Below are positions 5,048 to 26,395 of a stretch of 32,089 nucleotides of DNA, in pieces. This DNA is from an uncultured Bifidobacteriaceae bacterium. Its GTDB lineage: Bacteria; Verrucomicrobiota; Verrucomicrobiia; Limisphaerales; UBA11358. The first letter of the stretch is position 1. Every line of letters starts with the position of its first letter. The notes beneath the pieces were generated by a model. It did no database searches. It worked only from the letters and a program-made list of their open reading frames with translations, and had not been told where the DNA came from. The stretch covers positions 1 through 32,089 of the forward strand of contig CAYPTV010000001.1 of assembly GCA_964413505.1 (NCBI GenBank), given 5' to 3'. The translations under genes and the position numbers were made by a program.

Positions 5048-5215
5048 CAGGCGGCGATGGCGGCTTGGGATGAAGTGAATAAATGACTGTCATTCGCAGG
5101 CGGAAGACCGGGGTCTTCCTTTCGGAATAATGGAACATGGCGATCAAAAGACCCGTAGATTCGCGGAATCAAAAAGCATCTGCGAATTGACCGGCACGAA
5201 GTGTCTTTAAAAAAA

Positions 5216-5318
5216 TCTGAAATGCTGAAATGAGAAATTGGGAAATAGGAAATGAAATTATTTTTGATTTGTTTTGATTCCGCTTTCATAATTTTAGGGT
5301 TTAAGCTTTTGATGATTT
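5216..5318 (+). repeat. Junction element A: GAAA-rich arm followed by a TTTC/TTTG-rich arm, ending at the wzm ATG
   Basis: tctgaaatgctgaaatgagaaattgggaaataggaaatgaaatt | atttttgatttgttttgattccgctttcat...aagcttttgatgatttATG. It shares the modules GAAATGAAaTT, TTCCGCTTT and AGCTTTTGAT with the elements at 19355, 22566 and 27652. Confidence 0.6.
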
Positions 5319-6206: not shown

Positions 6207-6224
6207 CGCCGAAGGCGCGACGAC

Positions 6225-6291
6225 GGACTACGAGACCGCAAGACAACAGACCATGCGGATACGAGACCACTGACCACAGGACAACAAGACC
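6225..6291 (+). repeat. Left flank of the four-helix-bundle cassette (T-poor ACG-rich tract with internal direct repeats)
   Basis: ggactacgagaccgcaagacaacagaccatgcggatacgagaccactgaccacaggacaacaagacc. ACGAGACC occurs twice (6230, 6261). GAGACCACTGAC (6263-6274) is the exact reverse complement of 6679-6690. Confidence 0.65.
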
Positions 6292-6678
6292 ATGAGAGAT
6301 TACACGAAGATTGAAGCGTGGAAACTGGCGGACGATTTGACGGTGGCCGTCTATGAACAAACACGGCTATTTCCAAGAGAGGAAATTTATGGGCTGACCA
6401 GCCAGTTGCGCCGCGCTTCGTATTCCGTGCCTGCAAATATTGTGGAAGGTTCCTCGCGCGAGAGCAAAAAGGACTACTTGCACTTCCTTTACATTTCGCG
6501 TGGCTCGTTATCGGAAACCCAGTATTTCATTCACTTGTCACGGCGGCTTGGCTATCTGTCTGTCGCGGATGCAGAGCGATTGATTGGACAGACCCGACAG
6601 ACGTTTGCGTGTTTGCACGGCTTGATTAAGGCAGTCGAAAAAGAGGCGGGGAAGTTTGGAAAGTCAGTAGTCCCGTAG
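6292..6678 (+). CDS. Four-helix-bundle protein (23S rRNA intervening-sequence protein / Avd-like family)
   Basis: YTKIEAWKLADDLTVAVYEQTRLFPREEIYGLTSQLRRASYSVPANIVEGSSRESKKDYLHFLYISRGSLSETQYFIHLSRRLGYL is the canonical motif set of this family. Confidence 0.88.
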   Translation: MRDYTKIEAWKLADDLTVAVYEQTRLFPREEIYGLTSQLRRASYSVPANIVEGSSRESKKDYLHFLYISRGSLSETQYFIHLSRRLGYLSVADAERLIGQTRQTFACLHGLIKAVEKEAGKFGKSVVP

Positions 6679-6690
6679 TCAGTGGTCTCA
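6661..6690 (+). repeat. Right flank of the four-helix-bundle cassette (inverted copy of the left flank)
   Basis: aagtcagtagtcccgtagtcagtggtctca. GTCAGTGGTCTC (6679-6690) pairs perfectly (12 bp) with 6263-6274. Pairing extends inward imperfectly for about 11 more positions and covers the stop codon. Confidence 0.65.
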
Positions 6691-6697
6691 TTTTCTT

Positions 6698-7969: not shown

Positions 7970-8024
7970 GCGCGAGTTACAGCAACTGAAACATGAGATT
8001 CGGAACCGGTTAATAACCAGCAGT

Positions 8025-8600
8025 ATGAAATTTCCGTTCGGAAATCGTTTGGTCTCGGCGATGCGCACCCGCAACAGGTTTAGCCCGTTCCAAATCTGGT
8101 TGCATCAGCAAAAATCCTCGGGCTGCTTCATTGACCAACGGATTGACTTTACTGGCCGGTCTGATGGATATACATGGGTGCGAATTCATCCGGGTGCGGC
8201 TCTTGAGCGCGATATTACAATTTGGATTTCGCCTGACACAGGCGCACAGCCAGAACTCATATTGGGTGAAAAGGTTTTTATCGGCCGCAATACTTACCTT
8301 GGTGTCTATAAACCCGTCCACATTGGGAATTGTGTGCTTATCGGCGCTTATTGTTATCTGATTTCAGCAAACCACAACATTGAGCGGAGGGACATTCCAA
8401 TCCGTGATCAGGGTTTTACGGGAGCACCGATAGTAATCGAAGATGATGCATGGCTGGGCATCCATGTGGTGGTGTTGCCCGGAGTAACCATTGGACGAGG
8501 CGCGGTCATCGGCGCAGGCAGCGTGGTGACTTGCGATATTCCAGCGTGGGAGATATGGGGTGGCATTCCCGCACGTTTCATCAAGTCGCGTCCACAATGA
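8025..8600 (+). CDS. Left-handed beta-helix (hexapeptide-repeat) O-acetyltransferase
   Basis: IGRNTYLGVYKPVHIGNCVLIGAYCYL...IVIEDDAWLGIHVVVLPGVTIGRGAVIGAGSVVTCDIPAWEIWGGIPARFIK. The start is placed at ATG 8025 because the track's 7923 start overlaps wzt. Confidence 0.8.
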   Translation: MKFPFGNRLVSAMRTRNRFSPFQIWLHQQKSSGCFIDQRIDFTGRSDGYTWVRIHPGAALERDITIWISPDTGAQPELILGEKVFIGRNTYLGVYKPVHIGNCVLIGAYCYLISANHNIERRDIPIRDQGFTGAPIVIEDDAWLGIHVVVLPGVTIGRGAVIGAGSVVTCDIPAWEIWGGIPARFIKSRPQ

Positions 8601-9700
8601 AAGCAAACCGGGCAATTTTTACAATCGTCACCAAATCCTATCTGGCTTATGCCAGGGTGATGGCAAAGGAACTGCGCGCGCGTCATCCTGAAATTCTTTT
8701 TTATGTCTTTCTGGCCGATCGTCCTGATGGTTGTTTCCAGCCCGAACAAGAACCGTTCACCATCATCCCGCTGGCGGATTTTTTCCCTGCAGAATTGCTG
8801 CCGACGATGCCGGGCTACTATACGGCCTATGAGTTTTGCAATGCACTCAAACCGTTTGCCCATATTCATCTTGCCACCAAAACCGGAGCGGAACGATGGC
8901 TATATCTCGATTCGGACATATTTGCGTGCGGTAGTTTTGATTCCCTTTTTGAGGAACTTGACGACTGTTCGATTTTGCTGACCAGCCATATTCTTAAACC
9001 AGTTAAGATCGGGATTTCGGAACGAACGGAGTTGAATATTTTGAGTGCTGGCATTTATAACGGGGGGTTTGTCGGTCTAAAAAGAACGGAAGTGACGATG
9101 AGTTTTTTACTTTGGTGGAGGGAGCGGCTGATCTGGCATTGTCTGCATGATGTGCGTGGTTTGGAAGTTGATCAAACCTGGCTGAATTTCGTGCCGTCGC
9201 TTTTCCCTGAGGTAAAAGTTCTAAAAAATCCGGAGGTCAATGTGGCCTATTGGAACTTCCATGATCGCGAACTGGAACTGGATGCCAATGGAGACGTGAG
9301 GGTGGCTGGAAGGAGAATTCCCTTTTTTCATTTCAGCGGCTGGGATTGGAACGCGCCAGATAAGATTTCAAAGCATGCCTCGCCAGACTTGGGAAATTCC
9401 GCCCAAGCGTGGAATCATCTCCGTGACGCGTATTTGCGACGTTTGATTGAGGAATCAGTGCAAATCAGCAGCGCATGGCCGTATTCCTTTGGCAAAACAA
9501 CTGGCGGCCAGGACATTTCTTCCTCCGCGCGCCGCAATTTTTTAAGTTATTGCCGAAAACACAGTGGGCAGCCACTCGAGGTTAATATTTTTTCCAATCC
9601 CGAGTTCTTTCGCGACCCGCCACCGAAGCCCATATCGTTGAAAGATGCCTCAACGATTTTTATTGGGGCGCTGCTTCGAGCATCAGGCTTAAGAAAGTGA
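8597..9700 (+). CDS. Putative GT-A fold glycosyltransferase (GT8-like, DxD = DSD)
   Basis: IFTIVTKSYLAYARVMAKEL...WLYLDSDIFACGSF...YNGGFVGLKR...VDQTWLNFVP...VAYWNFHDR...IPFFHFSGW. The ATG at 8597 overlaps the upstream stop (ATGA). The track's 8450 start lies inside the previous gene. Confidence 0.6.
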   Translation: MKANRAIFTIVTKSYLAYARVMAKELRARHPEILFYVFLADRPDGCFQPEQEPFTIIPLADFFPAELLPTMPGYYTAYEFCNALKPFAHIHLATKTGAERWLYLDSDIFACGSFDSLFEELDDCSILLTSHILKPVKIGISERTELNILSAGIYNGGFVGLKRTEVTMSFLLWWRERLIWHCLHDVRGLEVDQTWLNFVPSLFPEVKVLKNPEVNVAYWNFHDRELELDANGDVRVAGRRIPFFHFSGWDWNAPDKISKHASPDLGNSAQAWNHLRDAYLRRLIEESVQISSAWPYSFGKTTGGQDISSSARRNFLSYCRKHSGQPLEVNIFSNPEFFRDPPPKPISLKDASTIFIGALLRASGLRK

Positions 9701-9766
9701 AATTGTGCTGGCAAACCAGATTAAGTTTCTGAAAACAATCGTTGAAGTCTGTTCGTTGTCTAGAGC

Positions 9767-11038
9767 ATGAAAAAGCTACGCATTGCCTTATGGAACAATC
9801 TGCCCAGCGGCGGTGGCAAGCGCGCATTCTTTGAGATGGCATCCGGGTTGGTGGGAAAAGGCCATCATCTGGAATCGTGGTGTCCGCCCACGGCGCACCG
9901 GAGTTATCTTCCGCTTGAAGGCATGATGCGGGAGAATGTGGTCGCTTATGACATCCCGAGTTTTAAGCAGAATCGCTTTTTGGCAAGGATTGGGGTTGCC
10001 GACCGCAGTATCCAGAATAAGTTTGCGGCCATGGACCGGCATTGCCGTGAATGTGCCGGGGGCATCAATGCAGGGGGGTTCGACGTTTTGCTGGCCACCA
10101 ACTGCTGGGACTTTGCGGTGCCACCCATCGGCAGGCATGTCCGCATTCCCAAGGTCATTTATCATGGGGAGCCAAGGAGGCATCTCTATGAAGCGCGACC
10201 AAAACTTCCGTGGGTGGCACGCCCCGCAGCAGAGAATGGTTTCTGGCCGCTTCCAAAATTGCGCCGACAGATCGTGGATCATAGCTCGATCGTCCTCAAA
10301 CGGATTGAACTTCGGGAAGAGCTGGACAGCGTCAGCGCCTTTGACCTGATTTTGGTGAACTCCGCCTTTAGCCGCGAAACCATGCTTCGCAGTTATGGAT
10401 TGGACTCGCGCGTCTGCTATCTGGGAATCAACACGCAACTTTTCAAGTCCACCGGAACTGCCCGGGAAGGTTACGTTGTCGGTCTGGGCGGATTTCAACG
10501 GCATAAAGGCATTGATACTGCGATTGCCGCGCTGGCAACCATCCCGTCGCCGGAACGACCCAAACTGCTCTGGATCGGCAATCTCTTGGATGACAGCTAC
10601 CGCAACGAGATGATTGCTCTTTCGAAGAATCTCGAAGTGAATCTTGAATGCCGCCAATTAGTTTCCGATGAAGAATTGGTAGATTGCCTCAACCGGGCAG
10701 CACTGATGATTTACACTTCACGGCTGGAACCGTTTGGTTTTGCGCCGCTGGAAGCGAACGCTTGCGGAACGCCTGTCGTGGCCGTTGCCGAAGGGGGCGT
10801 TCGCGAAACCGTGCAACACGAAGTCAATGGACTGCTTGTTCCCGATCGTGATGCCAAAGCACTGGGTGCAGCCGTGCAGCGACTGCTGAAAGATTGTTCA
10901 TTGGCACGCCAACTCGGAGAAACGGGATTAAAACTGGTTCGCGAGGTCTGGAATTGGGAATCGTCCATGGAGCGACTTGAGGAATCGTTGTTCGAGGTCA
11001 TAGCAGTTAAAAACCAAGTTTCGCCAACGAAGTCCTAG
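9767..11038 (+). CDS. Glycosyltransferase family 4 (GT-B)
   Basis: C-terminal EX7E region YTSRLEPFGFAPLEANACGTPVVAVAEGGVRETVQHEVNGLLV. Confidence 0.85.
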   Translation: MKKLRIALWNNLPSGGGKRAFFEMASGLVGKGHHLESWCPPTAHRSYLPLEGMMRENVVAYDIPSFKQNRFLARIGVADRSIQNKFAAMDRHCRECAGGINAGGFDVLLATNCWDFAVPPIGRHVRIPKVIYHGEPRRHLYEARPKLPWVARPAAENGFWPLPKLRRQIVDHSSIVLKRIELREELDSVSAFDLILVNSAFSRETMLRSYGLDSRVCYLGINTQLFKSTGTAREGYVVGLGGFQRHKGIDTAIAALATIPSPERPKLLWIGNLLDDSYRNEMIALSKNLEVNLECRQLVSDEELVDCLNRAALMIYTSRLEPFGFAPLEANACGTPVVAVAEGGVRETVQHEVNGLLVPDRDAKALGAAVQRLLKDCSLARQLGETGLKLVREVWNWESSMERLEESLFEVIAVKNQVSPTKS

Positions 11039-11062
11039 CTTTCATTTTTTAGTTTTTGTCAT

Positions 11063-12016
11063 GTGATTTCAGATACACTCATCCCGCCGGTTCCAGAGGA
11101 CGGAAAACTGCGCCAGTTCTGGTCAGTGATGATTCCGGCCTACAATCCAAACAGGGATTATCTGGAGCAGACATTAAGGAGTGTTCTTGTCCAGGATTCC
11201 GGTTCGGCGCAAATGCAGATCGAGGTGGTGGATGATTGTTCGCCCAAGGTGGACGTGGCGGCGATGGTGCGGGAAATCGCCGGGGATCGAATCAAAGTTT
11301 CGCAAACGTCCAAGAACCTTGGCCTGGCCGGTTGCTGGAACACCTGCATAGAGCGTTCTCGTGGCGAATGGGTGCATATCCTGCATCAGGATGATTATGT
11401 CTTGCCCGAATTTTATCAAACACTGGCAAAGACGGCAGGGCGTCATCCGGAGATTGGCCTGCTCGCGACGCGTTCATTTTTTATAGATCATGAAAATACA
11501 ATTCTAGGGGTCACGCCCCGGTTATGCGGAATGGAAAATGGCTCGCGTAAAGCAGACGATTTCTTTTACGGCACACCGATTCAATGTCCCGGGGTGGTTG
11601 TGAAACGATCTGTCTATCAAGCGCATGGAGGGTTCAGGTCGGATTTGATATTTACCCTGGACTGCGAAATGTGGGCGCGGGTTATCAGCAACGCGGGCGG
11701 ATTGGTTACATCAGCAGTGTTAGCCTGTTATCGTTCTTCGGATGGCAATGAAACCAGCCGATTAAAACGATATGGCAAAGATCTGCACGACTACGAACGG
11801 TTGAACCAGCTTTTTGCATCCCGCTACCCGAGTTTTTCAGCAAGGCGTGCTCGAGAACGGATGTGCGACATGGCGTTGGGGCAAGCGTTGCAATTTTCAT
11901 TGGCAGGTGACCACGCCTCCTCCAAGGCTAATTCAGCCTATTGGAGGCAAAATGCAACGGCCAAGTTGTGGTTTCGCCGGCTGACGCAAAAGCTGGAGCG
12001 AACTTTGTTCAAATAA
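11063..12016 (+). CDS. Glycosyltransferase family 2
   Basis: WSVMIPAYNPNRDYLEQTLRSVLVQ...QIEVVDDCS...ILHQDDY. The start is a GTG at 11063; ATG 11129 is the alternative. Confidence 0.8.
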   Translation: MISDTLIPPVPEDGKLRQFWSVMIPAYNPNRDYLEQTLRSVLVQDSGSAQMQIEVVDDCSPKVDVAAMVREIAGDRIKVSQTSKNLGLAGCWNTCIERSRGEWVHILHQDDYVLPEFYQTLAKTAGRHPEIGLLATRSFFIDHENTILGVTPRLCGMENGSRKADDFFYGTPIQCPGVVVKRSVYQAHGGFRSDLIFTLDCEMWARVISNAGGLVTSAVLACYRSSDGNETSRLKRYGKDLHDYERLNQLFASRYPSFSARRARERMCDMALGQALQFSLAGDHASSKANSAYWRQNATAKLWFRRLTQKLERTLFK

Positions 12017-12105
12017 TCATTCCGGATGACGCAGACGAAGCGGATAAATATCAAGAAAATCCGCGTTCATCAGTGAAATCTGTGGATTCAAAAGGGTATC
12101 GCCCG

Positions 12106-12437
12106 CAAAACACTTCGTAAAACTGTCAAAACGATTTGTGATTGGAGCATAACGATTCATGTCGCGGACAAATCCCTTCGTATTTGCCTCAAAACACTGT
12201 TATGCGCTGGCTAAAATCTTTTGTTCGGGAACAAAACACTGTTGTTATGTGCAAAACACTTTTGTATGGAGCCGGATACGATTTGTTTGCGGCAGAACAC
12301 TTTTACTTTGGGACAAAACACTGTTGTTCCGGCCCAAAATGAAAGTGTTTCAGTCAAAACACTGTTGTTCCGGTGTAAAACACATCGTCTTTGAAGCCAT
12401 TCAATTCATGTTTGCGCAAAAACTGGGATTATCTTGT
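12106..12437 (+). repeat. Degenerate tandem array of about 16 units of 20-21 bp (core CAAAACACTGTTGTT)
   Basis: Units start at 12106, 12127, 12148, 12169, 12190, 12211, 12232, 12252, 12273, 12293, 12314, 12335, 12355, 12376, 12397 and 12417. caaaacactgttgttccgg is identical at 12314-12332 and 12355-12373. Confidence 0.85.
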
Positions 12438-12550
12438 TCACAAACAATGCTGGTAGGGCGCGTCACTTGTATCTTGTATTTTATCTTCCTTGTTTGGCGA
12501 CAGCCAAACGGGAAGTTATGTGCATAATCTCACATCAGTGCCAAAAATGC

Positions 12551-12578
12551 TTGAAAATTTCCTCATTTTGTGTATTTT
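12551..12578 (+). promoter_or_regulatory. Candidate sigma70-like promoter for the giant gene
   Basis: TTGAAA (12551-12556), a 16-nt spacer, then TATTTT (12573-12578) with TG immediately upstream. If used, it excludes the GTG 12570 start and gives a very short leader to ATG 12594. This is a pattern match only. Confidence 0.25.
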
Positions 12579-12593
12579 ACAAGGCATAATTTC

Positions 12594-15500
12594 ATGCAAC
12601 AATTGACAAAGCCAAGGCTGTTTTGCTGCATAAAACGTTTTCTGACGGTTGCTGCGGTTATCCTCGCATTTCAAGCGGTGCTGACACGCGGTGGGCTTCC
12701 CAATCCTGTTGTGCCCATCACATGGAATGGTGCCGCAAGCGGTTTGCCCAACGGGAACTGGGATATTCTTAACACCGCAAACTGGGTCACCACCTCGGGA
12801 GGCGCGCCTTACGAATATCAGGACACGAGCGCGGTGACGTTCGATGATTCGCTGGCCGGCACCACCAATGTCATCCTGACTACGACGCTTTCACCCGGCA
12901 GCATCACGGTGAACAACACGCTTTCAAATTATGTGTTCAGCGGCTCGGGCAAAATCAGCGGGACAACCGGCTTGACAAAAACCGGCAGCGGCACATTGGT
13001 TGTGGACAACAGCGGCTCGAATGCTTTCAGCGGCAGTGTCACCATCAGTGCCGGGACAATCCAGATTGGCAACGGCGACGCCAGCGGAAACCTGCCGGGT
13101 GCGGTGATTGACAACGGTTCATTGATCTTCAACCGTGGCGATACCAGCCTCACCCATGCGGGCGTCATTTCTGGAACCGGCACGGTGTTCAATAACGGCA
13201 GTGGCACGGTGACTTTGAGCGTTGCCAACACCTTTACTGGCGGGCTCACCCTTAACAACGGCACGTTGATGGTCAACAGCACCGGCAATGGCAGCACTTC
13301 GTTGGGTGGCGTGGCCAACAACACCAGTTCAACCGCTGCCGCCAATGTGACCGTCAACGCCGGTGCCACCCTGGTGGGACTTGGTGCCGATGCATTTGGT
13401 TACTATCCGCATACAGCACCCGGAACCATCTTCATCAACGGTGGAACCGTTACGGACGTTGGAACCTCCAGTTATCGTATCACGCTGCCAAATCTGACCT
13501 TCACCGGCGGCACACTGGCCAGCGCCGCAGGGAATGCCGGCGACGCCAATGGGAATTACTCACTGTATGGCACCGGAGCGCCGTGCACCATAACCACCTT
13601 GAGCAACAACACAACGGCGGTCATCAGTGCTGGAATAATAACTTTGCAGCAGAACAATCAACCCACCGGAACGACCGCCTTCAATGTCGCTGCTGGCAAT
13701 GTCACCGGTGGAATGACTCCCGGAGTGGATTTACTCGTGTCTTCAGTCATTGCAAATTTCGGCGCTGAAGTGGGCAGCGTTCTAAAAACCGGTTCGGGCG
13801 TCATGGCTTTGGATTCAACCAACCTCTACACCGGCACGACGACTGTCAGCGGCGGGACGCTACAGTTGGGCACGACCAATGACACGGCTGTGTTGGCCGA
13901 GCCCGTGGGCACAGGAGCGGTAACCAACAATGCCATCCTGAATTTTGCCAGCGGCCAGGGGGTCGCCGTCCACAACATCATCAGCGGCACTGGCGCGGTG
14001 GTGGTGAGCAGCGGAACCAACATCCTTACGGCCACGAACACCTATGCTGGGAATACGATGGTGAAAGCGGGCATACTGTTGTTGACTGGCAGCAGCTCGA
14101 TAGCCAACAGTCCGACCATCACGTTAGCGAGTGGCGCAACATTTGATGTGTCCCAGCTGGCCAGTCCGTTCACCGTGGGCGCGGGCCAGACTTTGGGCGG
14201 CAGCGGAATCATTTCAGGGAACGTGATTGTCAATGGAAAGCTCCAGACCGGCGTGACCAATACAATTAACGGGAATCTCACTTACAATACCGGAACCGAG
14301 GCGGATTTTAATTTAAACACCAGCGCCACGGGCGGAGGCAATGATCAGACAGTCTTGAATGGCGCTGGCAGCATCCTGTCTTGCGGCGGAGCGAGCATCG
14401 GCATCAATTGCGGCGCAATCCTGGATCAGGCAAATGATTACACGCTCTTCAACCTGACCGGCGGCTCGGCCAGCATCGTGAGCAATTTCAATGTCATGCC
14501 AGTCTGGACTGGAACGACTCCGGCCAATGCCAGTTCCTATGGTATTGTGATCTTGCGAAACAAAGTCCTGCTTCACTTTAATTCCACTGGCACGACAAAT
14601 CTACCGGTGGTTACGAACCTTCCGGCCTCAAACATTGCTGCAACGACTGCGACTTTGAACGGCCAGGTGCTTTCGACGGGCGGCCAGTATCCGGCGGTCA
14701 ACATTTATTACGGCACAACCGATGGCGGGACAAATCCGGCGGCGTGGGCAACGAATGTTTCTTTGGGGTTGCAAACCGGATCCTTTGCCGCGGCGGCTTT
14801 CAACCTGACTACAAACACCACCTACTACTTCACCACTTCAGCCTCAAACTCGGCGGGCATGGCCTGGGCTACGCCTTCACAGTCATTCACCACGACGGTG
14901 GCGAGCGTGGCCGTGGCAACAAACCTGCCGGCTTCAAATGTGCAGGGCAGCTCGGCAATCCTGAACGGCCAGATTCTCTCCATCGGCAGTCAAGTCCCAA
15001 CAGTGACCTTGTATTATGGCCCGACCGATGGCGGAACCAATGCCTCAAACTGGGCGAACAATGTTTATCTCGGCCAGCAGGGCGGAAACTTTATCGTCAC
15101 AGTCACCGGCCTGTCCACCAACACGACTTATTATTATGCTGCAGCCGCCACAAACATCGCCGGCACGGCCTGGGCCAGCCCTTCAGCCAACTTCACCACA
15201 CTGCCGACGGCTCTCGTAGTTTCGGTGCTGACCTATCATTATGACAATGCGCGAACCGGGGCCAACACCAACGAGACATTGCTGACACCTTCGATTGTCA
15301 ACACGAACAGCTTCGGTCTATTGATCAAGTATGTGGTGGACGGGTTTGTTGTCGCTCAGCCATTGTATGTGCCAAGCGTGGCCATTCCCGGGCAAGGCAC
15401 TCATAACGTCGTGTTTGTGGCGACCGAGAATGCCAGTATTTATGCCTTTGACGCGGACGGCAACACGGCGGTAAATGGCGGATTATTATGGCACACCAAC

Positions 15501-18500
15501 CTGGGGATAGTGCCTTTACTCAGCAATGGTGAATTTGGCTATCGTTATGGAATCGGTAATGGCCTCAACATAGGTTATTATGAACAGGGCATCACCGACA
15601 CGCCTGTCATCGACCCTGTTTCTGGAACGATTTATGTGGATGTTCTTACGCGTGAAGTCACGACAACAACGAATTATTACCATCGTATCCACGCCTTGAG
15701 CATCACCAACGGCATGGAACAATCCTACAGCCCGGTGGTGGTCACTGCTTCGGTTCCTGGAACCGGCATGGACAGCTCGAACGGAGTGGTGACATTTAAT
15801 GCCAAGCAACAAAACCAACGCCCCGGACTGACGCTTGCCGGCGGAATTTTATACGTCGCCTATGGCAGTTTTAACGACACCGATCCGTTTCATGGCTGGG
15901 TCATGGGTTTCAACGCCACCAATCTCGTTCAATTGACCAACTGCATTTTCAACACCACGCCCAACGCGACGACAAATGTATTTGGCCCAAATGCCGGTGA
16001 AGGTGCGCTGTGGATGGGCGGTGATGGATTATGCGTGGACGCCAACAACAACCTCTTTTTTCAAACGGGCAATGGCAGCTTCAGCGCAAATACCAACGGC
16101 GGGGATTACGCTGACAGCATGATCAAGCTCTCCACGTCCAATTCACTGGCGGTGGCCGACTATTTCACCCCCTACAATCAGCTCACGCTGGCCAACTTCG
16201 ACATTGATCTTGGCTCGTGCGGCGCTGTCTTGTTGCCAGACTCGGTCGGGAGCACGAACCATCCGCATCTGATCGTGTCAACCGGCAAAAGCGGAACGAT
16301 TTATCTCGTGGACCGGGATAACATGGGACATTACCACGGCACTGATGGCATCAACGGAAATGACAGCCAGATTGTGCAATCCGTGATTGGTGCGACCGCA
16401 AGCACATGGAGTTCCCCCGCCTATTTCAACAACCAGATTTATCTGCAGCCCAGCAGCGCCGCAATGAAGGCATTCATTATCACCAATGGCGTCATTGTCC
16501 CATCGATCACCTCCGTGGCTGCGGCGGGCGTTGGCCTGGTTAACGGCGGGCCGATCATTTCCGCCAACGGCGCAAGCAATGGGATTGTCTGGGTGCTGAA
16601 TAACAACTCTGGTGGCGGCACGGAGACATTGTATGCCTGCACCGCCAACAATATCGCACAGCAGCTCTACAACAGCAGCCAGCTTTCGCGGGACAATCCA
16701 GGCTTCGGGATAAAGATGACCACACCCATGGTGGCCAACGGGAAGGTGTATGTCGGGGCGCAGTATGCGTTGTCGGTGTATGGATTGACGACATTTGTGG
16801 CGACGCCCACCATCTCGCCCAACGGCATCGCATTCACCAATTCAGTGACGGTGACATTGAGCGACGCGACGGCGGGCACGGCGATCTATTACACCCTGAA
16901 CGGCACTATCCCGACGACGAATTCGCTGCTATACACAGGGCCCTTTGCCATCACCACCACGTTGAACTTGCAGGCCATCGCGGTAAAATCCGGTGCGGTG
17001 AACAGCGGGGTGGCGTCTGCCTCTTTTGTCAACACGGCCGCCTTGGGCAGCGGCATCGGATTGCTGGGCCAATACTGGACGAACACGAGTGCGCTGGCGT
17101 TCACGAATATTTCATTCAACACTGCGGCGACATTGACGCGGACGGACGCGGTGGTGAACTACAATTGGAGCACGAACGGGCCTGATCCCAGCATTGGGCA
17201 GACGAACTTCATCGCCAGCTGGACCGGGTCGGTGCAGCCGCAATACAGCGAGACCTACACCTTCACCACCGTTGCGGATGACGGGGTGCGTCTGTGGGTC
17301 AACGGGCAGTTGTTGATTGACGACTGGAACACTCATTCATCTACGACGACCAACAGCGGGAGCATCTCGCTCAATGCGCAGGAGCTTTACAACATCCAGA
17401 TGGATTATTTCCAGGGCGGCAGCAACGCCGTGGCACAACTGATGTGGAGCAGTCTCTCCGCGGCACAAAACATCATTCCGCAGACACAACTTTATCCCTA
17501 CACGAACTCGCCGCCGGCGGTCGTGCTTTCAAGCCCGGCGAACAACTCAAGTTACACCGCGACGGCGAGCGTGACGATCGGCGCGAATGCGGATGCGGCC
17601 TATAATCCAATCAGCGCGGTGAGTTTCTACGCCAACGGCGTTTTGCTGGGCACGGTGAGCAACAGCCCCTACGCACCGCTTTACGAACTGACGGCAACGG
17701 GGCTTGGCGCGGGCAGTTATGCGTTGACGGCGGTGGCCACGGACGGGAGCGGATTGTGCAGCACGTCGGCGTCGGTGAACATCACGGTCAACGCTGGGAG
17801 CGGAGCGCCCTACGGACTGACAAACACCGTTCCGGTCTCCGCGTTCCTGAACATGCCGACGACCTTCAACGGGGCATTGCCGGCATTGCTCTCAGGAACG
17901 GGAGCATTCAGCGACACCACCAACCGCATACCAGCTGGCGGATTGATTCCCTACCAGCCCAACACGCCGCTGTGGTCGGACGGCGCGGTCAAGAGCCGGT
18001 ATATGGTGGTGCCCAATCCCGCTCCGAGCGGGAGCGGGACGATCACGCCTGATCAGCAAATCGCCTTTGCACCGACCAACAACTGGACGTTCCCTGCGGG
18101 GACTGTGTTTGTGAAGAACTTCGACCTTGTGGTGGACCAGACCAGCACGAACACGCCCCTGCGCCGGCTGGAGACTCGTTTGCTGGTGCGGAACATCAAC
18201 GGAGCGGTGTATGGCGTGACCTACAAGTGGCGTCCGGACAACAGCGATGCCGATCTGCTCTCAAGCAGCCTGACGGAGAACATCTTGATCACCAATGCTA
18301 CAGGTGTGAGCACTCAGGCTTGGTATTACCCCAGCCCTGCGGACTGCCTGACCTGCCACACGCCCGTGGCCAATTATGTGCTGGGCGTCAACACACGGCA
18401 GTTGAACGGCAGCCTGACCTATCCCGCCACCGGTGTCACGGACAACCAGCTGAGGACATTGAACCATCTGGGCCTGTTCAACCCGGCGTTCGACGAATCA

Positions 18501-19334
18501 ACCATCACGAACTTTGAAAGCCTCTCGGCGCTGACCAATCTCACCGCATCACTGGAGGAACGGGCTCGCTCTTACCTTGATGCCAACTGCGCGCAGTGCC
18601 ATCAGCCCGGCGGATCGGGCATCACCTTCGACGCGCGCTACGACACGCCGCTCTCCCGGCAGAACATCACCAACTATCCGGCAGCATTCTCGCTGGGGGT
18701 GGACAGCGCCTGCATCATCAAGGCGGACGATGTCTGGCGTTCGGTGCTGCTGGCGCGCATCAACACCAATGCCGCGGCTATCAAGATGCCGCCGCTGGCG
18801 CGCAGCATCATTGACACCAACGCCGTGCAGGTGATTGCCGGCTGGATCAACAGCCTGTCGGGCATGCCCACCCTGGCACCGCCGGTCATCACGCCAAACG
18901 GCGGCAGCTACTACGCCTCGGTGGGTGTCACCCTCACGCCGCCCGACACCAATGCGGCCATCTACTACACGCTGGACGGCTCTCTGCCCACGACCGGTTC
19001 GCTGCAGTATTCGGGCGCGTTCAACCTGACGGGCAACGCGACCGTCACGGCCAGCGCGTTCGAGACTAACTTCAACAACAGCATCGGGGCCGGCGCGCAG
19101 TTCCTGGTGCAGCCGCTCAACTTCACGTCGCTGGGCTACAACACGGCCGGCGGCCAGTTCCAGATGGGCTTCGAGGGCGTCATGGGCGAAACCTATGTGC
19201 TCCAGGCCACCACCAATTTCACCGACTGGACCCCCATCAGCACCAACAACGCCACAACCAATTTCTTAAACCTCACAGACCCAGACTCCACCAACTTTCA
19301 GAACAGATTCTACAGGGTTCTGTTAATACAGTAA
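12594..19334 (+). CDS. Giant secreted multidomain surface protein (PATR beta-helix repeats, FN3-like x2, beta-propeller, PA14, Ig-like, dihaem-type module)
   Basis: A single uninterrupted ORF of 2254 aa from GTG 12570, or 2246 aa from ATG 12594. It has an N-terminal hydrophobic signal/anchor [22 protein letters not shown]. Domain evidence is listed in the sub-features below. Confidence 0.9.
   Translation: [2246 protein letters not shown]
12930..14580 (+). other. Domain: autotransporter-associated beta-strand (PATR) repeats / beta-helix region
   Basis: At least four PATR-type units: [109 protein letters not shown] and [35 protein letters not shown]. Confidence 0.75.
14598..15209 (+). repeat. 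Two tandem 102-aa (306-nt) FN3-like modules inside the giant gene
   Basis: TNLPASN starts at 14613 and again at 14919. Both copies share LNGQ(V/I)LS.G...P.V..YYG.TDGGTN...W.N.V.LG.Q.G.F......L..NTTYY......N.AG.AWA.PS..FTT at roughly 50 percent identity. Confidence 0.7.
15228..16790 (+). other. Domain: beta-propeller-like region (PQQ-like repeat type)
   Basis: [21 protein letters not shown]...AQPLYV...[19 protein letters not shown]...GTIYVDV...GILYVAYGS...[10 protein letters not shown]...[12 protein letters not shown]...[17 protein letters not shown] shows recurrent strand motifs typical of this propeller class. The assignment is from memory of the family and is not HMM-verified. Confidence 0.5.
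17050..17460 (+). other. Domain: PA14 (carbohydrate-binding/adhesin-type)
   Basis: GLLGQYWTN...[11 protein letters not shown]...[43 protein letters not shown]...[24 protein letters not shown] is the classic PA14 pattern. Confidence 0.8.
17805..18865 (+). other. Domain: two-CXXCH putative dihaem c-type cytochrome-like module
   Basis: CLTCH at 18345-18359 and CAQCH at 18588-18602. The context [18 protein letters not shown]...ETRLLVR...YKWR...[15 protein letters not shown]...IKMPPLAR resembles, from memory, the TIGR03806 / SO2930-type dihaem family. Confidence 0.5.
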
Positions 19335-19354: not shown

Positions 19355-19449
19355 CTGAAAATTGAAAATGACACAACAGAGGTCGGAAGTCAGAGGTCAG
19401 AGGTCCATTTCAGCTTTTTAGCTTTTCAAATTTTCAGTTTTTGATTTTT
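19355..19449 (+). repeat. Junction element B: 14-bp stem enclosing CAGAGGTC repeats, with a T-rich 3' side ending at the next ATG
   Basis: CTGAAAATTGAAAA (19355-19368) pairs with TTTTCAAATTTTCAG (19423-19437), leaving one bulged T. CAGAGGTC occurs at 19377, 19391 and 19398. ATTTCAGCTTTTT is at 19408. The element ends tttttgatttttATG. Confidence 0.65.
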
Positions 19450-20427
19450 ATGGAACTGTCCGTCATTATCTGCACGCATAATCCGCGAAAGGATTATCTG
19501 GAGCGCACGTTAAATGCATTGCGTGCGCAGACGCTGCCCAAGGAACAATGGGAGTTGCTGCTGATTGATAATGCCTCCAAAGAACCACTGGCCAAGAGTT
19601 GGGATTTGTCCTGGCATTCGCAAGCCCGACATATCCGGGAGGAACAACTTGGACTTACGCCCGCCCGCCTGCGTGGCATCAAGGAATCAAAAGGCGAACT
19701 GCTGTTATTTGTGGATGATGATAATATGTTGCAACCTGATTATCTTGCAGTTTTATTAAATTTAGCCGAAGAACATTCAAAGCTGGGTTGTTTTGGTGCC
19801 GGAATATTGGAGCCGGAATTTGAACAGGAACCGTCACCCGAATTGCGGCCATACACATTCAACCTGGCATTGCGCTCAATTGAGAAACCAGAGTGGTCCA
19901 ATTCCATGAACGAAGCAAGGAAGCCGTTGGGAGCGGGTTTGGCCGTCCGGCGGATGGTGGCTGAAAAATCCGCTGCCGTGGTGCAGAGTTGCCCCATTCG
20001 AATCCAATTGGATCGATGTGGTTCAACACTCAATTCAGGTGGAGACGATGAGTTTTCCTGGGCGGCCTGTGAGATGGGGCTTGGCAAAGGATTGTTTCCC
20101 GCCCTTAAGATCAAACATCTGATTGGTCAGAAACGCGTAGAAAAACAATATCTGTTATCCATTGTAAAAGGGAATGGATTTTCACTTGCAATGCTTGCTC
20201 ATCTTCATGGCCAGACAATTTATTTACCGCCCACATCTTCGACATTTGCCGACATACTATGCAGTTTGTTCCGCGCGAAGTTGTCTATGACCCTTTATCA
20301 CGCAAACGCATGGTGGCTAGGCCTGCATAAGCCGCCAATAGAAAAGGACTTTGAAGATGCGTGGCGATCTGGTGTTGACGAGGCCCGGAAAAAACTGGCG
20401 GAATTGAAACCTGCCAAAAATAATTAA
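19450..20427 (+). CDS. Glycosyltransferase family 2 (paralogue 1 of a tandem pair)
   Basis: MELSVIICTHNPRKDYLERTLNALRAQTLPKEQWELLLIDNAS...LLFVDDDN. ATG 19450 is preferred over the track's TTG 19441. Confidence 0.8.
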   Translation: MELSVIICTHNPRKDYLERTLNALRAQTLPKEQWELLLIDNASKEPLAKSWDLSWHSQARHIREEQLGLTPARLRGIKESKGELLLFVDDDNMLQPDYLAVLLNLAEEHSKLGCFGAGILEPEFEQEPSPELRPYTFNLALRSIEKPEWSNSMNEARKPLGAGLAVRRMVAEKSAAVVQSCPIRIQLDRCGSTLNSGGDDEFSWAACEMGLGKGLFPALKIKHLIGQKRVEKQYLLSIVKGNGFSLAMLAHLHGQTIYLPPTSSTFADILCSLFRAKLSMTLYHANAWWLGLHKPPIEKDFEDAWRSGVDEARKKLAELKPAKNN

Positions 20428-21342
20428 ATGGATCTTTCAGTCATCATTCGCACGCATAACCCACGCGTTGATTACCTGACGCGGACTTTGGACGCGCTCA
20501 AGACTCAAACGCTGCCCAAGGACCAATGGGAATTGTTGCTCATTGACAATGCCTCCAAGAATCTTTTGGCCGGAAAGTGGGATCTGTCCTGGCATCCCCA
20601 CGCCAGTCATGTTCGCGAGGAACAACTTGGTTCCACATATGCCCAATTGCGGGGGATACGGGAATCGGCGTCGGACCTGATTGTTTTCGTAGACGATGAC
20701 AATGTGCTTTTTCCTGACTATCTGATGGAATGTATTCAGATCGCCAAAATGTGGACTGTTCTTGGGGCCTGGGGTGGTCAGCAGTTTCCGGAATTTGAAG
20801 ACGGCGAACCAATTGAAACCTGGAAGCGAGAATTTTGGACCGGCACTTTAAGACGTGATGCTTGGTCGAACAATTATGACCGGGCCACCGTTCCGATTGG
20901 CGCAGGAGTCTGTATCCGCCGTCAGGTGGCATTAAAATATGCCGGACTGGCGGGCAGCGATCCGTTGCGGCAAAGATTAGGCAGGACGGGTGCCGGGATT
21001 TTGAACTGCGCTGAAGATTATGACATGGCATTCGTTGCCTGCGACCTGGGCCTGGGTGTGGGGCGTTTTGTCAGCCTGAAACTATATCATCTTATGCCAA
21101 AGAGTCGGACAAGTGATGAATACCTTCTAAAGCTTAGTGAAGGGTTTGGATATTCCCTGGTCATATTGGACGCCTTGCGCGGAACCAAAACCCACCAGCT
21201 TTCGCATATAGACCGGATTGTGAACTTCTACAAACGGCTTCGAATTCCACCAATGAGACGGCGGATGGATGCGGCCTACGAAGCTGGAAGGACGCGGGCG
21301 ATCAATGAATTGAACATGATTTCCAGTCCGACATCGAAATGA
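20428..21342 (+). CDS. Glycosyltransferase family 2 (paralogue 2 of a tandem pair)
   Basis: MDLSVIIRTHNPRVDYLTRTLDALKTQTLPKDQWELLLIDNAS...IVFVDDDN. It starts on the nucleotide after the previous TAA. Confidence 0.8.
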   Translation: MDLSVIIRTHNPRVDYLTRTLDALKTQTLPKDQWELLLIDNASKNLLAGKWDLSWHPHASHVREEQLGSTYAQLRGIRESASDLIVFVDDDNVLFPDYLMECIQIAKMWTVLGAWGGQQFPEFEDGEPIETWKREFWTGTLRRDAWSNNYDRATVPIGAGVCIRRQVALKYAGLAGSDPLRQRLGRTGAGILNCAEDYDMAFVACDLGLGVGRFVSLKLYHLMPKSRTSDEYLLKLSEGFGYSLVILDALRGTKTHQLSHIDRIVNFYKRLRIPPMRRRMDAAYEAGRTRAINELNMISSPTSK

Positions 21343-22565
21343 ATTATTACGAGGAACTATACAATGGATGCCCTCCGCCGACGGGGAACATGTTCGGCAG
21401 CAAAAGCGATGGCCAAGCCGAACGGCTGGCGGAAGCCCGGAAACTTACCGGAATGATGCAGTCTCAACGCCCGTTCTGTTTCCTGCGCATGGGTGATGTC
21501 GAACTGAAATTTCTTTTGACCTATCAGGACAATCAACTGGATCAACTGGATCGTTCGGAATATGGCGACGGCCCCCTGTCCGGCACGCAAGGGTGCGGGA
21601 ATCCCGGCCTGGGACCAAAATATGCCAAACGCCTTTGGAACGTTTATGAGCAGGCCGACTATGTGGATTTCCATGAAAGGAACTGGCCGAACGAGCATCT
21701 GGTCAAAAAGTTGAAGATGGTCAGGAACTCCGGCACGCACCGGAACCCGGACAAAAATACCTCCGTCATTTTCCTGACCTGGGTCGAGAAGGAATTCAAA
21801 GAATACTGCAAGGGCCGACGCGTTGGCATTGCCGGTGCGGAATCACGATTACTGGAGATTCTTTGCAAGTCACAGGAGTTCAAGGCGGCGGCGGCAGATT
21901 ATTGGCCGGAGGATGCCGGGATATTTTTCCACCAAGCCCGGAATGACGGGCGAAACCTCGACGTCAATCTGGATCTGGTAAAAGAGGACTTGCGAAAATT
22001 TGTCGCCGACAACCGTCTGGACACACTTTTCCTCTCGTTGGGCGGCGGCGCAAAAATCCTTGGCTTTGAACTGTCCCGCGAACTTGGAATCTGCTGCTTT
22101 GATTTCGGAGCCATGACTCGGGCGTTGACTTATAGCGGCTGCGACGGAAACCGCGTGGCGCGTTCTCCTCATTCTCCATTTCTCTTTCGCATCCCGTTCG
22201 CGACTTACATGGACGCGCTCGAGAAAGCCATGCCGAAACTGACTCCGGCGGAACTTTTGGCCAAGGCCCACGGCCAGATTATTCTGGAGGTGGTGAAAAA
22301 GGAAGTCGGGTGGACTTTTGCCTCATGGGAACATGACTTCAGCGGGGAAAATCGCGCCGCCTTCAAAAAGGCATATCAGATTTATTGCAAACGCTACCGG
22401 CATCTGTTCAAGGCCGGCCCGGAGGCGCAAAGGGAAAGGACAGGTTTTCTGCATTTCTGCGGAACGAATGGGCTGACGCTGGAAGGGCGCTTTTTTATGG
22501 CAATCTTCCGGGCCAAAGGGATTGCTAGACGGTGTCTCGTGCTTAAGCAGAAAGTAGAAATTTAG
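21339..22565 (+). CDS. Hypothetical protein, possibly a GT-D/DUF1792-like glycosyltransferase
   Basis: A 408-aa ORF whose start overlaps the upstream stop (ATGA). CFLRMGDVELKFLL resembles the RFGDGE motif, and LSLGGGAKILGFELSRELGICCFDFGAM resembles the nucleotide-binding strand-loop of DUF1792 enzymes. The similarity is weak and recalled from memory. Confidence 0.35.
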   Translation: MNYYEELYNGCPPPTGNMFGSKSDGQAERLAEARKLTGMMQSQRPFCFLRMGDVELKFLLTYQDNQLDQLDRSEYGDGPLSGTQGCGNPGLGPKYAKRLWNVYEQADYVDFHERNWPNEHLVKKLKMVRNSGTHRNPDKNTSVIFLTWVEKEFKEYCKGRRVGIAGAESRLLEILCKSQEFKAAAADYWPEDAGIFFHQARNDGRNLDVNLDLVKEDLRKFVADNRLDTLFLSLGGGAKILGFELSRELGICCFDFGAMTRALTYSGCDGNRVARSPHSPFLFRIPFATYMDALEKAMPKLTPAELLAKAHGQIILEVVKKEVGWTFASWEHDFSGENRAAFKKAYQIYCKRYRHLFKAGPEAQRERTGFLHFCGTNGLTLEGRFFMAIFRAKGIARRCLVLKQKVEI

Positions 22566-22665
22566 GCGAAAAATTAGAAGTTGAGAAAGTAGAAATGAAT
22601 TTCAGCTTTCAGTTTTCCAAATTTCCGCTTTTTACTTTGGTTTGCCTTCTAGTTTTGGTTTGTTT
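22566..22665 (+). repeat. Junction element C: imperfect purine-arm/pyrimidine-arm palindrome ending at the next ATG
   Basis: gcgaaaaattagaagttgagaaagtagaaatgaa | tttcagctttcagttttccaaatttccgcttttt...ggtttgtttATG. The arms are roughly reverse-complementary. It shares the GAAATGAATTT, TTTCAGCTTT, TTTTCCAAATTT and TTCCGCTTTTT modules with A, B and D. Confidence 0.6.
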
Positions 22666-23766
22666 ATGAACGCTGACAAGCACAACCCCCGATCAGATTC
22701 GACGCGGATCGCATCCCTCGATGGGTTTCGCGCCCTCTCCATCGTCATGGTTCTTTGGGATCATGCCCAGTTGACAAACCATTTTCCGAAACTGCCCTTT
22801 CCCTGGATCAACTATATTTTAGACGGTGAGATGGGGGTGAGGATTTTTTTTGTCATCAGCGGTTTTCTTATCACGACACTGCTGCTGCAGGAGGAGAAAA
22901 AATGCGGTTATATTTCCCTTCCATTGTTCTACAAGCGCAGGGCCTTGCGGATTTTGCCTGTCTATTGGGCTTACATTCTGACAGTTGTCCTTTACGCCGC
23001 GATCACCGGTCTGGTGATACCATTCTGGGATTATTTTGAGACCCTCACTTTCACCACCTCCTGGTTTATGCGGCACCAATGGATTTTGGGCCACAGCTGG
23101 TCTCTCAGCATTGAAGAAATATTTTACTTGGTCTGGCCGTTTGCCCTGACAAGGCTTGGCCCCAAAAAAAGGCTTTGGTTCGCATTTGCGGGTATTCTGC
23201 TGGGTCCGATATTACGGGCTTTGAATTATCAATATGGATGGCGTAGCGTGACACACACCGTTTGGGTAGTTCCGGATGTGATCATGTGGGGATGCCTCCT
23301 TGCGTTGCTCCACAATCAATTCTCCGTCAGGCTGGTTGCCATATTCAGGAGAAACGCATGGATTTATCATTCCTTGATTGTTTTGGTGTTTTCGGGGCTT
23401 GATTGGGCGTTTAATCACCGGGTGTTCGGCCTTATCACGGTTCCATTCGCAATTTCATTCCATTCTTTGGCAATCTGCTATTTGCTGTATTACTACTCAT
23501 TCATTTCGAAGGGGCTTGTGTTCAAAATGCTGAATAATACATGGGTTGTTGCTCTCGGCGGAATCTCTTACAGCCTGTATTTGTGGCAGGAGATATTTCT
23601 GTTCCCAAAAATCCAACATTTCTTCTTCTGGCAATCATTTCCCATAAACGTCCTGGGAGCCGTGGTCGCCGCCGCCGCTTCATATTATCTATTGGAAAAG
23701 CCACTGCTCAAGTTGCGTGTAAAATTGCGCCACCCGGCCTTGAAGAGCAAGGCAGCGCCTAATTAA
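22666..23766 (+). CDS. Acyltransferase family 3 (OafA/YrhL-like membrane O-acyltransferase)
   Basis: LDGFRALSIVMVLWDH...GVRIFFVISGFLIT...HSWSLSIEEIFYLVWP...GGISYSLYLWQ. ATG 22666 is preferred over TTG 22642. Confidence 0.85.
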   Translation: MNADKHNPRSDSTRIASLDGFRALSIVMVLWDHAQLTNHFPKLPFPWINYILDGEMGVRIFFVISGFLITTLLLQEEKKCGYISLPLFYKRRALRILPVYWAYILTVVLYAAITGLVIPFWDYFETLTFTTSWFMRHQWILGHSWSLSIEEIFYLVWPFALTRLGPKKRLWFAFAGILLGPILRALNYQYGWRSVTHTVWVVPDVIMWGCLLALLHNQFSVRLVAIFRRNAWIYHSLIVLVFSGLDWAFNHRVFGLITVPFAISFHSLAICYLLYYYSFISKGLVFKMLNNTWVVALGGISYSLYLWQEIFLFPKIQHFFFWQSFPINVLGAVVAAAASYYLLEKPLLKLRVKLRHPALKSKAAPN

Positions 23767-23812
23767 AGTCAGAGTCGGCTTCAAAGCCTTATTTTGCATC
23801 CGCCAGTCTATT

Positions 23813-25357: not shown

Positions 25358-25359
25358 AG

Positions 25360-26394: not shown

Positions 26395-26395
26395 T

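Follow-up and report, generated by a model that had tools for sequence, protein, structure and literature searches.

The window analysed here is a 32,089-nucleotide stretch of an uncultured bacterium (assembly GCA_964413505.1, contig CAYPTV010000001.1, positions 1 to 32,089 of the forward strand; lineage Verrucomicrobiota, Limisphaerales), which carries, in the middle of a glycan-assembly locus, one 6.7-kb gene for a giant multidomain protein. We propose that this protein is a carbohydrate-docking, quinohaemoprotein-like oxidoreductase mounted on a beta-helix stalk, and give this reading a probability of about one half. It is supported by the predicted fold of the central beta-propeller, by candidate equivalents of active-site residues of dehydrogenases that use pyrroloquinoline quinone (PQQ), by the pqq, TIGR03866, SO2930, alternative complex III (ACIII) and cbb3 genes near its relatives, by an analogous protein of Pseudoalteromonas, and by a recurrent link to carbohydrates.

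Architecture of the giant protein

The 6.7-kb open reading frame (ORF) described in a first-pass annotation, which was made from the sequence alone, is real: it runs on the + strand from an ATG at 12594 (or an alternative GTG at 12570) to 19334 and encodes 2246 amino acids (aa) from the ATG. Its parts, assigned mainly by hidden Markov model (HMM) scans and structure modelling, are as follows.

12594..19334, + strand: whole coding sequence, 2246 aa plus stop; identical database protein P0001
12594..12689, + strand: signal peptide or signal anchor (aa 1-32), with a basic n-region and hydrophobic FLTVAAVILAF; read from the sequence by eye
12699..14597, + strand: PATR beta-helix stalk (aa 36-668), ~270-aa super-repeats; HMM
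14598..15209, + strand: two FN3-like modules, Pur_ac_phosph_N-like (aa 669-872); HMM, 29.8 bits, two stretches
15210..16799, + strand: 8-bladed beta-propeller of the PQQ-dehydrogenase/BamB type (aa 873-1402); AlphaFold2, Foldseek and hhalign
16800..17045, + strand: immunoglobulin (Ig)-like module 1, CHB_HEX_C/Fn3_assoc (aa 1403-1484); HMM
17046..17507, + strand: PA14 domain (aa 1485-1638); HMM
17508..17798, + strand: Big_7 bacterial Ig domain (aa 1639-1735); HMM
17799..18872, + strand: dihaem c module of the SO2930 type, TIGR03806 (aa 1736-2093), beta-rich in its N-terminal half and helical in the half after it; HMM and model
18345..18359, + strand: first haem-binding motif, CLTCH (aa 1918-1922), C and H (nearly) invariant in the homologue alignment
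18588..18602, + strand: second haem-binding motif, CAQCH (aa 1999-2003), with a probable Met ligand in IKMPP (aa 2063-2067)
18873..19103, + strand: Ig-like module 2, CHB_HEX_C/Fn3_assoc (aa 2094-2170); HMM
19104..19331, + strand: C-terminal beta-sandwich of ~76 aa ending RFYRV; no model; a widespread domain, often tandem and often terminal

All the domain types named by the first-pass annotation were confirmed, nearly all of them by HMM scans; the propeller was recognised from its fold model and not by an HMM. Bit scores reached 50.6 for the four PATR matches, 97.9 for the two CHB_HEX_C_1/Fn3_assoc modules and 45.5 for Big_7, and the FN3-like pair, searched as an excised segment, scored 29.8 bits as Pur_ac_phosph_N against a cut-off of 30. 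The domain order had to be corrected in one respect, in that the two CHB_HEX_C modules, which had been listed side by side, are not adjacent: the order is signal peptide, PATR, two FN3, propeller, CHB_HEX_C, PA14, Big_7, dihaem module, CHB_HEX_C and C-terminal sandwich, so that the second CHB_HEX_C follows the dihaem module. Pfam and NCBIfam scans found neither an autotransporter barrel (PF03797) nor any other C-terminal barrel, in agreement with the earlier description of an exported, chimeric multidomain protein that lacks a barrel. The protein thus shares PATR repeats with autotransporters and Verrucomicrobial PATR proteins but, having no beta-barrel translocator, is not a classical type V secretion substrate. 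The combination of a propeller, a lectin-type domain and a haem module was found in no described family. Charged residues are very scarce in the giant protein (K 0.9%, R 1.5%, E 1.1%), and T, G, A, N and S are abundant; the FN3 pair, Big_7 and the second CHB_HEX_C contain no Lys or Arg at all.

An 8-bladed propeller with a candidate PQQ-type active site

The AlphaFold2 model of the propeller (predicted local distance difference test score, pLDDT, 84.7; predicted template modelling score, pTM, 0.90) had BamB as its best Foldseek match (E 2.7e-13), followed closely by the quinohaemoprotein alcohol dehydrogenases (ADHs) 1kv9, 1yiq, 8gy2 and 1kb0 (E ~1e-12, template modelling score 0.53-0.59), with tetrathionate hydrolase, PedH, XoxF and methanol dehydrogenases among the further matches; these matches assign it to the 8-bladed PQQ-like superfamily. 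The family is large, with more than 7,700 homologues at E<=1e-5, many of them stand-alone 'hypothetical' proteins of ~600 aa and others fused to CHB_HEX_C, PA14, Calx-beta, LamG or PKD domains. A scan of species genomes located it in Verrucomicrobiota and, abundantly, in Acidobacteriota.

We then compared the family profile by hhalign with an alignment of six PQQ enzymes, consisting of five solved enzymes (sequences taken from phmmer alignments) and Escherichia coli Gcd, which was used instead of the single Gcd sequence because the latter aligned over one blade only. This gave one collinear alignment of 293 columns with a score of 29.5, compared with 16.4 +/- 2.7 (maximum 23.8) for 40 column-shuffled controls. 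It paired 'VDANNNLFFQTGNGS' with 'YDPELDLLYVGTGNGS', 'FDIDLGS' with 'DSWDFTA', and 'STGKSGTIYLVDRDNMG' with 'QAPKNGFFYVLDRTNGK'. In this alignment D1205 corresponds to the Asp of the WD motif (Gcd D466), K1232 to Gcd K493 and N1160 to the Asn of the GNGS motif. We take Gcd Asp466 to be the catalytic base, Gcd Lys493 to be the essential Lys/Arg, and the GNGS Asn to be a calcium ligand. The spacing from Asp to Lys is 27 residues in the giant protein, in 1kv9 and in Gcd alike.

D1205, K1232, W1140 and D1149 were conserved in 100% of a set of 95 propeller domains that came from Verrucomicrobiota, Acidobacteriota and other phyla; D1095 was conserved in 99% of them, D1203 in 95% and N1160 in 94%. 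Across these phyla, 42 positions were conserved at >=97%, and many of them are Asp, Lys, Arg, His, Glu or Trp. W1140, D1149, N1160, D1203, D1205 and K1232 are accordingly listed here as candidate active-site residues. A lanthanide signature, that is, an Asp two residues past the catalytic Asp, was considered and rejected, the position being Gly in the spacing-consistent alignment.

A dihaem module of the SO2930 type

The module downstream matches TIGR03806, the 'SO2930 family diheme c-type cytochrome', over positions 2-314 of the 314-residue profile (E 1.4e-59) with 201.8 bits, the NCBI cut-off being 313.3. It has more than 3,900 homologues, and its CXXCH motifs at aa 1918 and 1999 were kept in 46 homologues. 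The second motif lies in a class-I-like helical half that gave Cytochrome_CBB3 and PSCyt1 matches, and a conserved 'KMPP' there probably supplies a Met ligand. A further candidate Met ligand of the haems is found in NMP (aa 1753-1755). The structure model (pLDDT 83.9) had no Foldseek match in the PDB at E<=1e-3, and, when PDB sequences were searched with its profile, only the flanking Ig domains gave matches. To our knowledge, no function has been described and no structure solved for the SO2930 family; literature searches on SO2930/TIGR03806 and on PQQ, PA14 and Verrucomicrobia gave nothing useful. A catalytic, P460-like first haem was also considered and dropped as too weak, since matches of the beta-rich half to cytochrome P460 and beta-sheet cytochrome c' had a probability of ~0.4 and the Pfam P460 match covered 12 residues.

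SO2930/HNE_0200 (TIGR03806) proteins are usually of ~400 aa and encoded beside a parallel beta-helix gene. The classical pair is seen on a Novosphingobium plasmid, where a gene for a NosD-like parallel beta-helix protein is followed by the SO2930 cytochrome gene between TonB-dependent receptors, and in Sandaracinus the arrangement is continued by a 'diheme cytochrome c-553'. The giant protein shares the full profile coverage and the two CXXCH motifs; in contrast to these proteins, its module is internal to 2246 aa, and the beta-helix on its own chain is of the PATR type and not of the NosD/pectate-lyase type.

The strongest hint to the role of the module comes from an independent domain fusion in an uncharacterised 'starch-binding protein' of Pseudoalteromonas sp. 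Bsw20308 (plasmid pPBSW1, WP_237113707.1, 2157 aa, L095 4613-11086). Its domains are, in order, PKD, three CBM26, a GSDH/TIGR03606 PQQ sugar dehydrogenase (aa 428-741), SO2930 (aa 798-1097), Big_2, cytochrome c and PSD domains, the SO2930 module following directly on the dehydrogenase. By its domains it looks like a starch-directed quinohaemoprotein. Like the giant protein, it is a giant exported protein with an SO2930 dihaem module after a PQQ-family propeller and with carbohydrate-binding modules; it differs in its 6-bladed GSDH propeller, its CBM26 modules and its extra Planctomycete-type cytochrome/PSD domains, and its dihaem module is 29% identical. A DUF1552 gene comes next after the Pseudoalteromonas gene, and the PSD/PSCyt domains of the protein are of Planctomycete type.

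PA14 domain, stalk and C-terminal sandwich

For the PA14 domain (88.6 bits against a cut-off of 24), the nearest solved relative is the PA14 dyad of RsgI3, a pectin sensor of Clostridium thermocellum (E 2e-65). The calcium motif DD is retained, VADDGVRLWV aligning with TVTDDGVRLWV of RsgI3. In RsgI PA14 domains the five-residue specificity loop reads QHVRA in the pectin type and NNTGN in the xylan type (RsgI3/RsgI4 structures 6qe7 and 6qdi; PMC6852018). In an alignment with the RsgI PA14 domains, the loop equivalent to CBL2 reads QGGSN, which matches neither type, so that the PA14 ligand is not readable from the loop. The giant protein thus shares a strong PA14 match and the DD motif with the RsgI3/RsgI4 biomass sensors of cellulolytic clostridia, but has a single PA14 domain and not a dyad.

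The stalk is the variable part of the protein: relatives swap PATR for LamG or Ig domains, and the core from propeller to haems stays constant. The PATR repeats make up the N-terminal ~630 aa, and hundreds of PATR proteins without a barrel were found in related genomes. P0511, a protein >90% identical that is encoded at this very locus in L093/L094 (flanks 100% identical), has 2516 aa against 2246 aa, with one extra ~270-aa PATR super-repeat (window ~12980-14600); this difference reflects either a stalk-length polymorphism or a repeat collapsed by assembly in one contig.

Such parts would also suit a non-catalytic surface adhesin or matrix protein, in which propeller and PA14 would act as lectins and the haems would serve extracellular electron transfer or be unlinked to any catalysis by the propeller. 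PATR stalks, FN3/Ig spacers and PA14 are elements typical of adhesins, the stalk repeat number varies between near-identical strains, a scaffold protein (BamB) is the top structural match, and the composition is charge-poor and rich in T, N, S and G. We nevertheless regard this as very unlikely, since the 42 positions conserved at >=97% look like an active site and not like a scaffold, and since it is the stalk that varies and is replaced by LamG/Ig in relatives, the core being constant.

The C-terminal sandwich, searched as an 82-aa query (aa 2165-2246, window 19086-19331), retrieved 3,180 representative homologues at E<=1e-3 and corresponds to no Pfam or NCBIfam model. It often stands at the extreme C-terminus of large secreted proteins; it also occurs internally and in tandem arrays of up to 24 copies, which rules out a unique sorting signal.

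Relatives and their gene neighbourhoods

The database held 18 full-length relatives that were 51-70% identical to the giant protein and came from Verrucomicrobiae metagenome bins, and we examined the neighbourhoods of 11 distinct ones. Glycoside hydrolase (GH) genes of families GH2, 5, 9, 27, 28, 38, 92 and 97 flank most of them, as do PA14-sensor kinases. P0006, P0003 and P0019 are encoded immediately downstream of genes for a PA14-sensor histidine kinase and a LuxR-type regulator, in surroundings that contain GH2, GH9, GH27, GH28, GH92 and GH97 genes; P0002 lies between two GH5 cellulases and a GFO/IDH/MocA oxidoreductase; P0005 is close to GH2 and GFO/IDH/MocA genes; and P0009 has a mixed neighbourhood. 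P0007 and P0008 follow ACIII and a cbb3 oxidase, which are encoded directly upstream (L002, L004). The sole relative in a glycan-assembly locus was P0004 (L006).

The two remaining relatives, P0018 and P0012, lie in a cassette with genes for an SO2930 dihaem protein, a TIGR03866-like propeller and a small protein. In L009, pqqB-C-D-E was found two genes from P0018. The YVTN propeller gene adjoining the orthologue in L009 and L091 has as its best NCBIfam match TIGR03866, 'PQQ-dependent catabolism-associated beta-propeller protein' (237-240 bits at E 3e-70, the cut-off being 287 bits), and homologues 65-70% identical stand beside the gene in L013, L014 and L020. A stand-alone SO2930 dihaem gene with a CHB_HEX_C tail adjoins the gene in L009, L014, L020 and L091, the small conserved protein (~185 aa) is encoded in eight loci, and in three the gene after the giant gene is a prepilin-like one. 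None of these cassette genes is present in the window, L093 or L006.

Several further features of these loci were observed. A histidine kinase of ~1,100 aa with a weak PA14 signal and a LuxR-type response regulator are encoded directly upstream of the relatives in L001, L008, L014, L015, L029 and L090, and the PA14 of the neighbouring sensor kinases showed no detectable similarity to that of the giant protein. In the cassette (L009, L013, L014, L020, L091), a prepilin-like (N_methyl) gene overlaps the stop codon of the giant gene. One Limisphaerales contig (L028, 1-9811) carries three propeller-family genes in tandem and then a 445-aa ORF with one CXXCH, which points to local expansion of the family.

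Proposed mechanism and its weighing

According to the proposed reading, the giant protein would be exported by the Sec route and matured in the periplasm, because attachment of c-type haem requires this compartment. A variable stalk (PATR beta-helix and two FN3) would carry, as a spacer, the conserved core of 8-bladed PQQ-dehydrogenase-like propeller, Ig, PA14, Ig, SO2930-type dihaem module, Ig and terminal sandwich. PA14 would dock the protein on a polysaccharide, as its calcium-dependent lectin fold and its nearest solved relative, a plant-polysaccharide sensor, suggest. The propeller may then oxidise a sugar hydroxyl or anomeric carbon at a PQQ-type site in which Asp1205 would be the base, Lys1232 would take part, and Asn1160 would hold the metal together with an acidic residue nearby. 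The two c-haems would hand the electrons over to a soluble dihaem cytochrome, from which they would reach the aerobic respiratory chain.

A number of observations weigh against this reading. The propeller segment (aa 870-1402) had no Pfam match at E<=10 and no NCBIfam match at E<=0.01, a search of PDB sequences with a 61-sequence propeller profile returned zero matches, and the hhalign comparison with the PQQ enzymes, at P = 0.006, carried a probability of just 5.9%. The 8-bladed fold is common to the cofactor-less BamB, YxaL and tetrathionate hydrolase. At the residue level, the calcium-ligand Glu of the PQQ enzymes aligns with a Thr that has acidic residues on either side, the CCDxVNRG motif of alcohol and methanol dehydrogenases is absent from the propeller, and so is a vicinal Cys-Cys, none of its Cys (1117, 1147, 1209, 1349) being adjacent; the last feature is also absent from Gcd and is thus not universal among 8-bladed PQQ dehydrogenases. 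About 330 residues (three domains) separate the propeller from the haems. At the genomic level, the 32-kb window contains no pqq gene, YVTN propeller gene or cytochrome partner gene, a pqq operon was found in 1 of ~95 loci, and more than 60 Acidobacterial homologues had no dihaem gene within 10 kb; c-type cytochrome genes made up 7 of 403 ORFs near Acidobacterial propellers and 5 of 736 far from them, so that enrichment is unclear.

Several of these points would fit a cofactor-less hydrolase or lyase acting on a glycan, comparable to tetrathionate hydrolase, with the haem module as a lineage-specific addition that has another role, such as sensing, peroxide handling or anchoring to a redox partner. 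Tetrathionate hydrolase is among the top Foldseek matches, no PQQ HMM matches the propeller, and most family members, those of Acidobacteriota, have no cytochrome partner nearby. In addition, CHB_HEX_C, PA14, LamG, Calx-beta and PKD as partner domains typify secreted glycan-degrading enzymes, and many relatives are surrounded by GH genes. We consider this explanation unlikely, given that candidate equivalents of the Asp, Lys and Asn fall within the collinear match to PQQ dehydrogenases, that pqq and TIGR03866-like genes stand beside relatives, and that Pseudoalteromonas has the same dihaem module joined to a true PQQ sugar dehydrogenase.

The oxidoreductase reading can also be set against known systems. 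With the quinohaemoprotein ADHs (ADH IIB 1kv9, ADH IIG 1yiq, qhEDH 1kb0) and Gcd, the giant protein shares the 8-bladed fold, the collinear profile alignment and candidate Asp/Lys/Asn equivalents that are 94-100% conserved in its family, and, as in the ADHs, c-type haem and propeller are in one polypeptide. It differs from the ADHs in having no HMM-level similarity and no Cys-Cys ring, PQQ binding being putative; in its cytochrome, which is a dihaem module of ~350 aa placed three domains downstream, whereas the class-I domain of the ADHs directly follows the propeller; and in the added PA14, Ig modules and beta-helix stalk. The fungal CcPDH combines an AA8 cytochrome b, an AA12 PQQ domain and CBM1 in one secreted protein (PMC4332668, PMC5960967, PMC6881789). 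Its three-part logic is the same, a PQQ propeller that oxidises sugars being combined with a cytochrome and a module for carbohydrate binding, and it offers a model of how the giant protein may work, possibly with a supply of electrons to other enzymes; this is an analogy only, as AA12 is 6-bladed, the cytochrome is of b-type, the binding module is CBM1, and no part is homologous to the giant protein. By sequence models the giant protein is a member of neither the quinohaemoprotein nor the AA12 families; under the proposed reading it would work like the former and, by analogy, like the latter. What appears new is that its propeller and dihaem modules are both without functional or structural characterisation.

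If the reading holds, thousands of 'hypothetical' secreted propellers of peat and soil bacteria would gain a testable chemistry, namely PQQ-type sugar oxidation, and the SO2930 dihaem family would gain a role as the electron outlet of carbohydrate-oxidising propellers. The giant protein would then be a bacterial counterpart of the fungal combination of catalytic domain, cytochrome and binding module, feeding electrons into oxidative polysaccharide breakdown, which would be of interest for carbon turnover in soils and for the design of enzymes and biosensors.

The glycan locus around the giant gene

All neighbours of the giant gene in the window, including an AraC regulator, lie on the same strand.

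764..12016, + strand: upstream half of the glycan locus, encoding a putative outer-membrane protein, Wza-like, Wzc-like, Wzm, 23S-IVP, Wzt with Wzt_C, hexapeptide acyltransferase, one unknown, and glycosyltransferases (GTs) of the types GT4 and GT2
12017..12593, + strand: AT-rich spacer of 577 nt upstream of the giant gene
19441..31083, + strand: downstream half of the glycan locus, encoding GT2, GT2, GT-D-like, Acyl_transf_3, MBOAT, one unknown, GT4, GT4, methyltransferase, GT4

None of the related loci contains a homologue of the 122-aa ORF inside the spacer (12159-12527), which is probably not a gene; this leaves 577 nt of AT-rich spacer before the giant gene; promoter and terminator scans around the gene were uninformative.

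The first-pass annotation had read the position of the gene as a sign that its product serves the polymer made by the locus, and this was mostly not borne out: the orthologues are largely scattered over unrelated contexts, with one of the 11 distinct relatives in a glycan-assembly locus. Using the locus genes of the window as queries, we found that, of the 92 other propeller-carrying loci, only L006, L093 and L094 share export or glycosyltransferase genes with the window. L093/L094, from the same population, hold the giant gene at the same locus position, and L006 holds it (10001-16630) at the same place as the window. L006 is 88% identical to the window in the outer-membrane protein, 91% in Wzc, 96% in Wzm, 69% in Wza and 59% in Wzt, and none of its glycosyltransferase genes is similar to those of the window. 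By gene content, it is a locus of the same kind in a close relative, with the classic pattern of conserved export genes around a variable glycan-specific centre; this centre contains the giant gene in both genomes. Judged from these loci, the position is lineage-specific and not a rule of the family, and the window warns against inferring function from one neighbourhood.

The giant gene itself is a mosaic. Between L006 and the window, identity is 85-89% in Big_7, the dihaem module, the second CHB_HEX_C and the C-terminal domain, 61-69% in PATR, FN3, the first CHB_HEX_C and PA14, and only 51% in the propeller; the window propeller is 63-68% identical to those of relatives from unrelated contexts, and the L006 propeller (P0004) is 51-55% identical to all others. 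The switch lies near the PA14/Big_7 border, at about window position 17500, and the pattern suggests recombination inside the gene. That the propeller changes with the glycosyltransferase set is a lead only, resting on n=2 loci.

These data bear on the possibility that the giant protein is a dedicated component of the locus that binds, modifies (for example, oxidises) or anchors its polymer. The gene shares the strand of its neighbours and lies within the variable part of the locus, its position is kept in L093/L094 and also in L006, whose glycosyltransferases are unrelated, and the swapped or strongly diverged propeller of L006 (51%, against 85-89% for the C-terminal half) is what would be expected of a substrate-specific domain that tracks the glycan. 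We judge this distinctly unlikely: 10 of the 11 distinct relatives lie elsewhere, the family as a whole has no link to glycan-assembly genes, the 577-nt spacer suggests a promoter of its own, the nearest relatives of the PA14 domain sense plant polysaccharides, and the covariation comes from two loci. For the proposed oxidoreductase, the substrate could be either a foreign glycan or the product of the locus itself. A more far-reaching proposal, which we put forward tentatively and consider rather unlikely, is that the propeller founds a very large family, matched by no model, of PQQ-type oxidoreductases that act on carbohydrates in Verrucomicrobiota and Acidobacteriota of soils; that in Verrucomicrobiota a structurally new dihaem module wires it to the respiratory chain, as a bacterial counterpart of the fungal AA12-AA8-CBM1 system; and that in this lineage it was recruited into the glycan locus, where exchangeable propeller alleles track the glycosyltransferases and oxidise the cell's own polymer.

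It had also been suggested that the giant protein is itself the substrate glycosylated by the locus. It is rich in Asn, Thr and Ser, has 55 N-X-S/T sequons and is adjoined by glycosyltransferase genes. The sequon count is, however, 1.7 standard deviations above composition-matched shuffles (45.7 +/- 5.6), there are zero D/E-X-N-X-S/T sequons, the window showed neither an oligosaccharyltransferase gene nor an HMW1C-like one, and relatives of the same composition are encoded outside glycan loci; this suggestion is therefore highly improbable.

Two side observations concern the export genes of the locus. A '23S rRNA-intervening sequence protein' gene (6292-6678) lies between wzm and wzt and was found at the same spot in L006 and L093, L006 having a second copy further downstream. 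Wza/Wzc and Wzm/Wzt are normally regarded as parts of two different export routes; the segment 2065-7969 joins a Wza/Wzc-type pair with a Wzm/Wzt ABC transporter that carries the Wzt_C glycan-binding domain.

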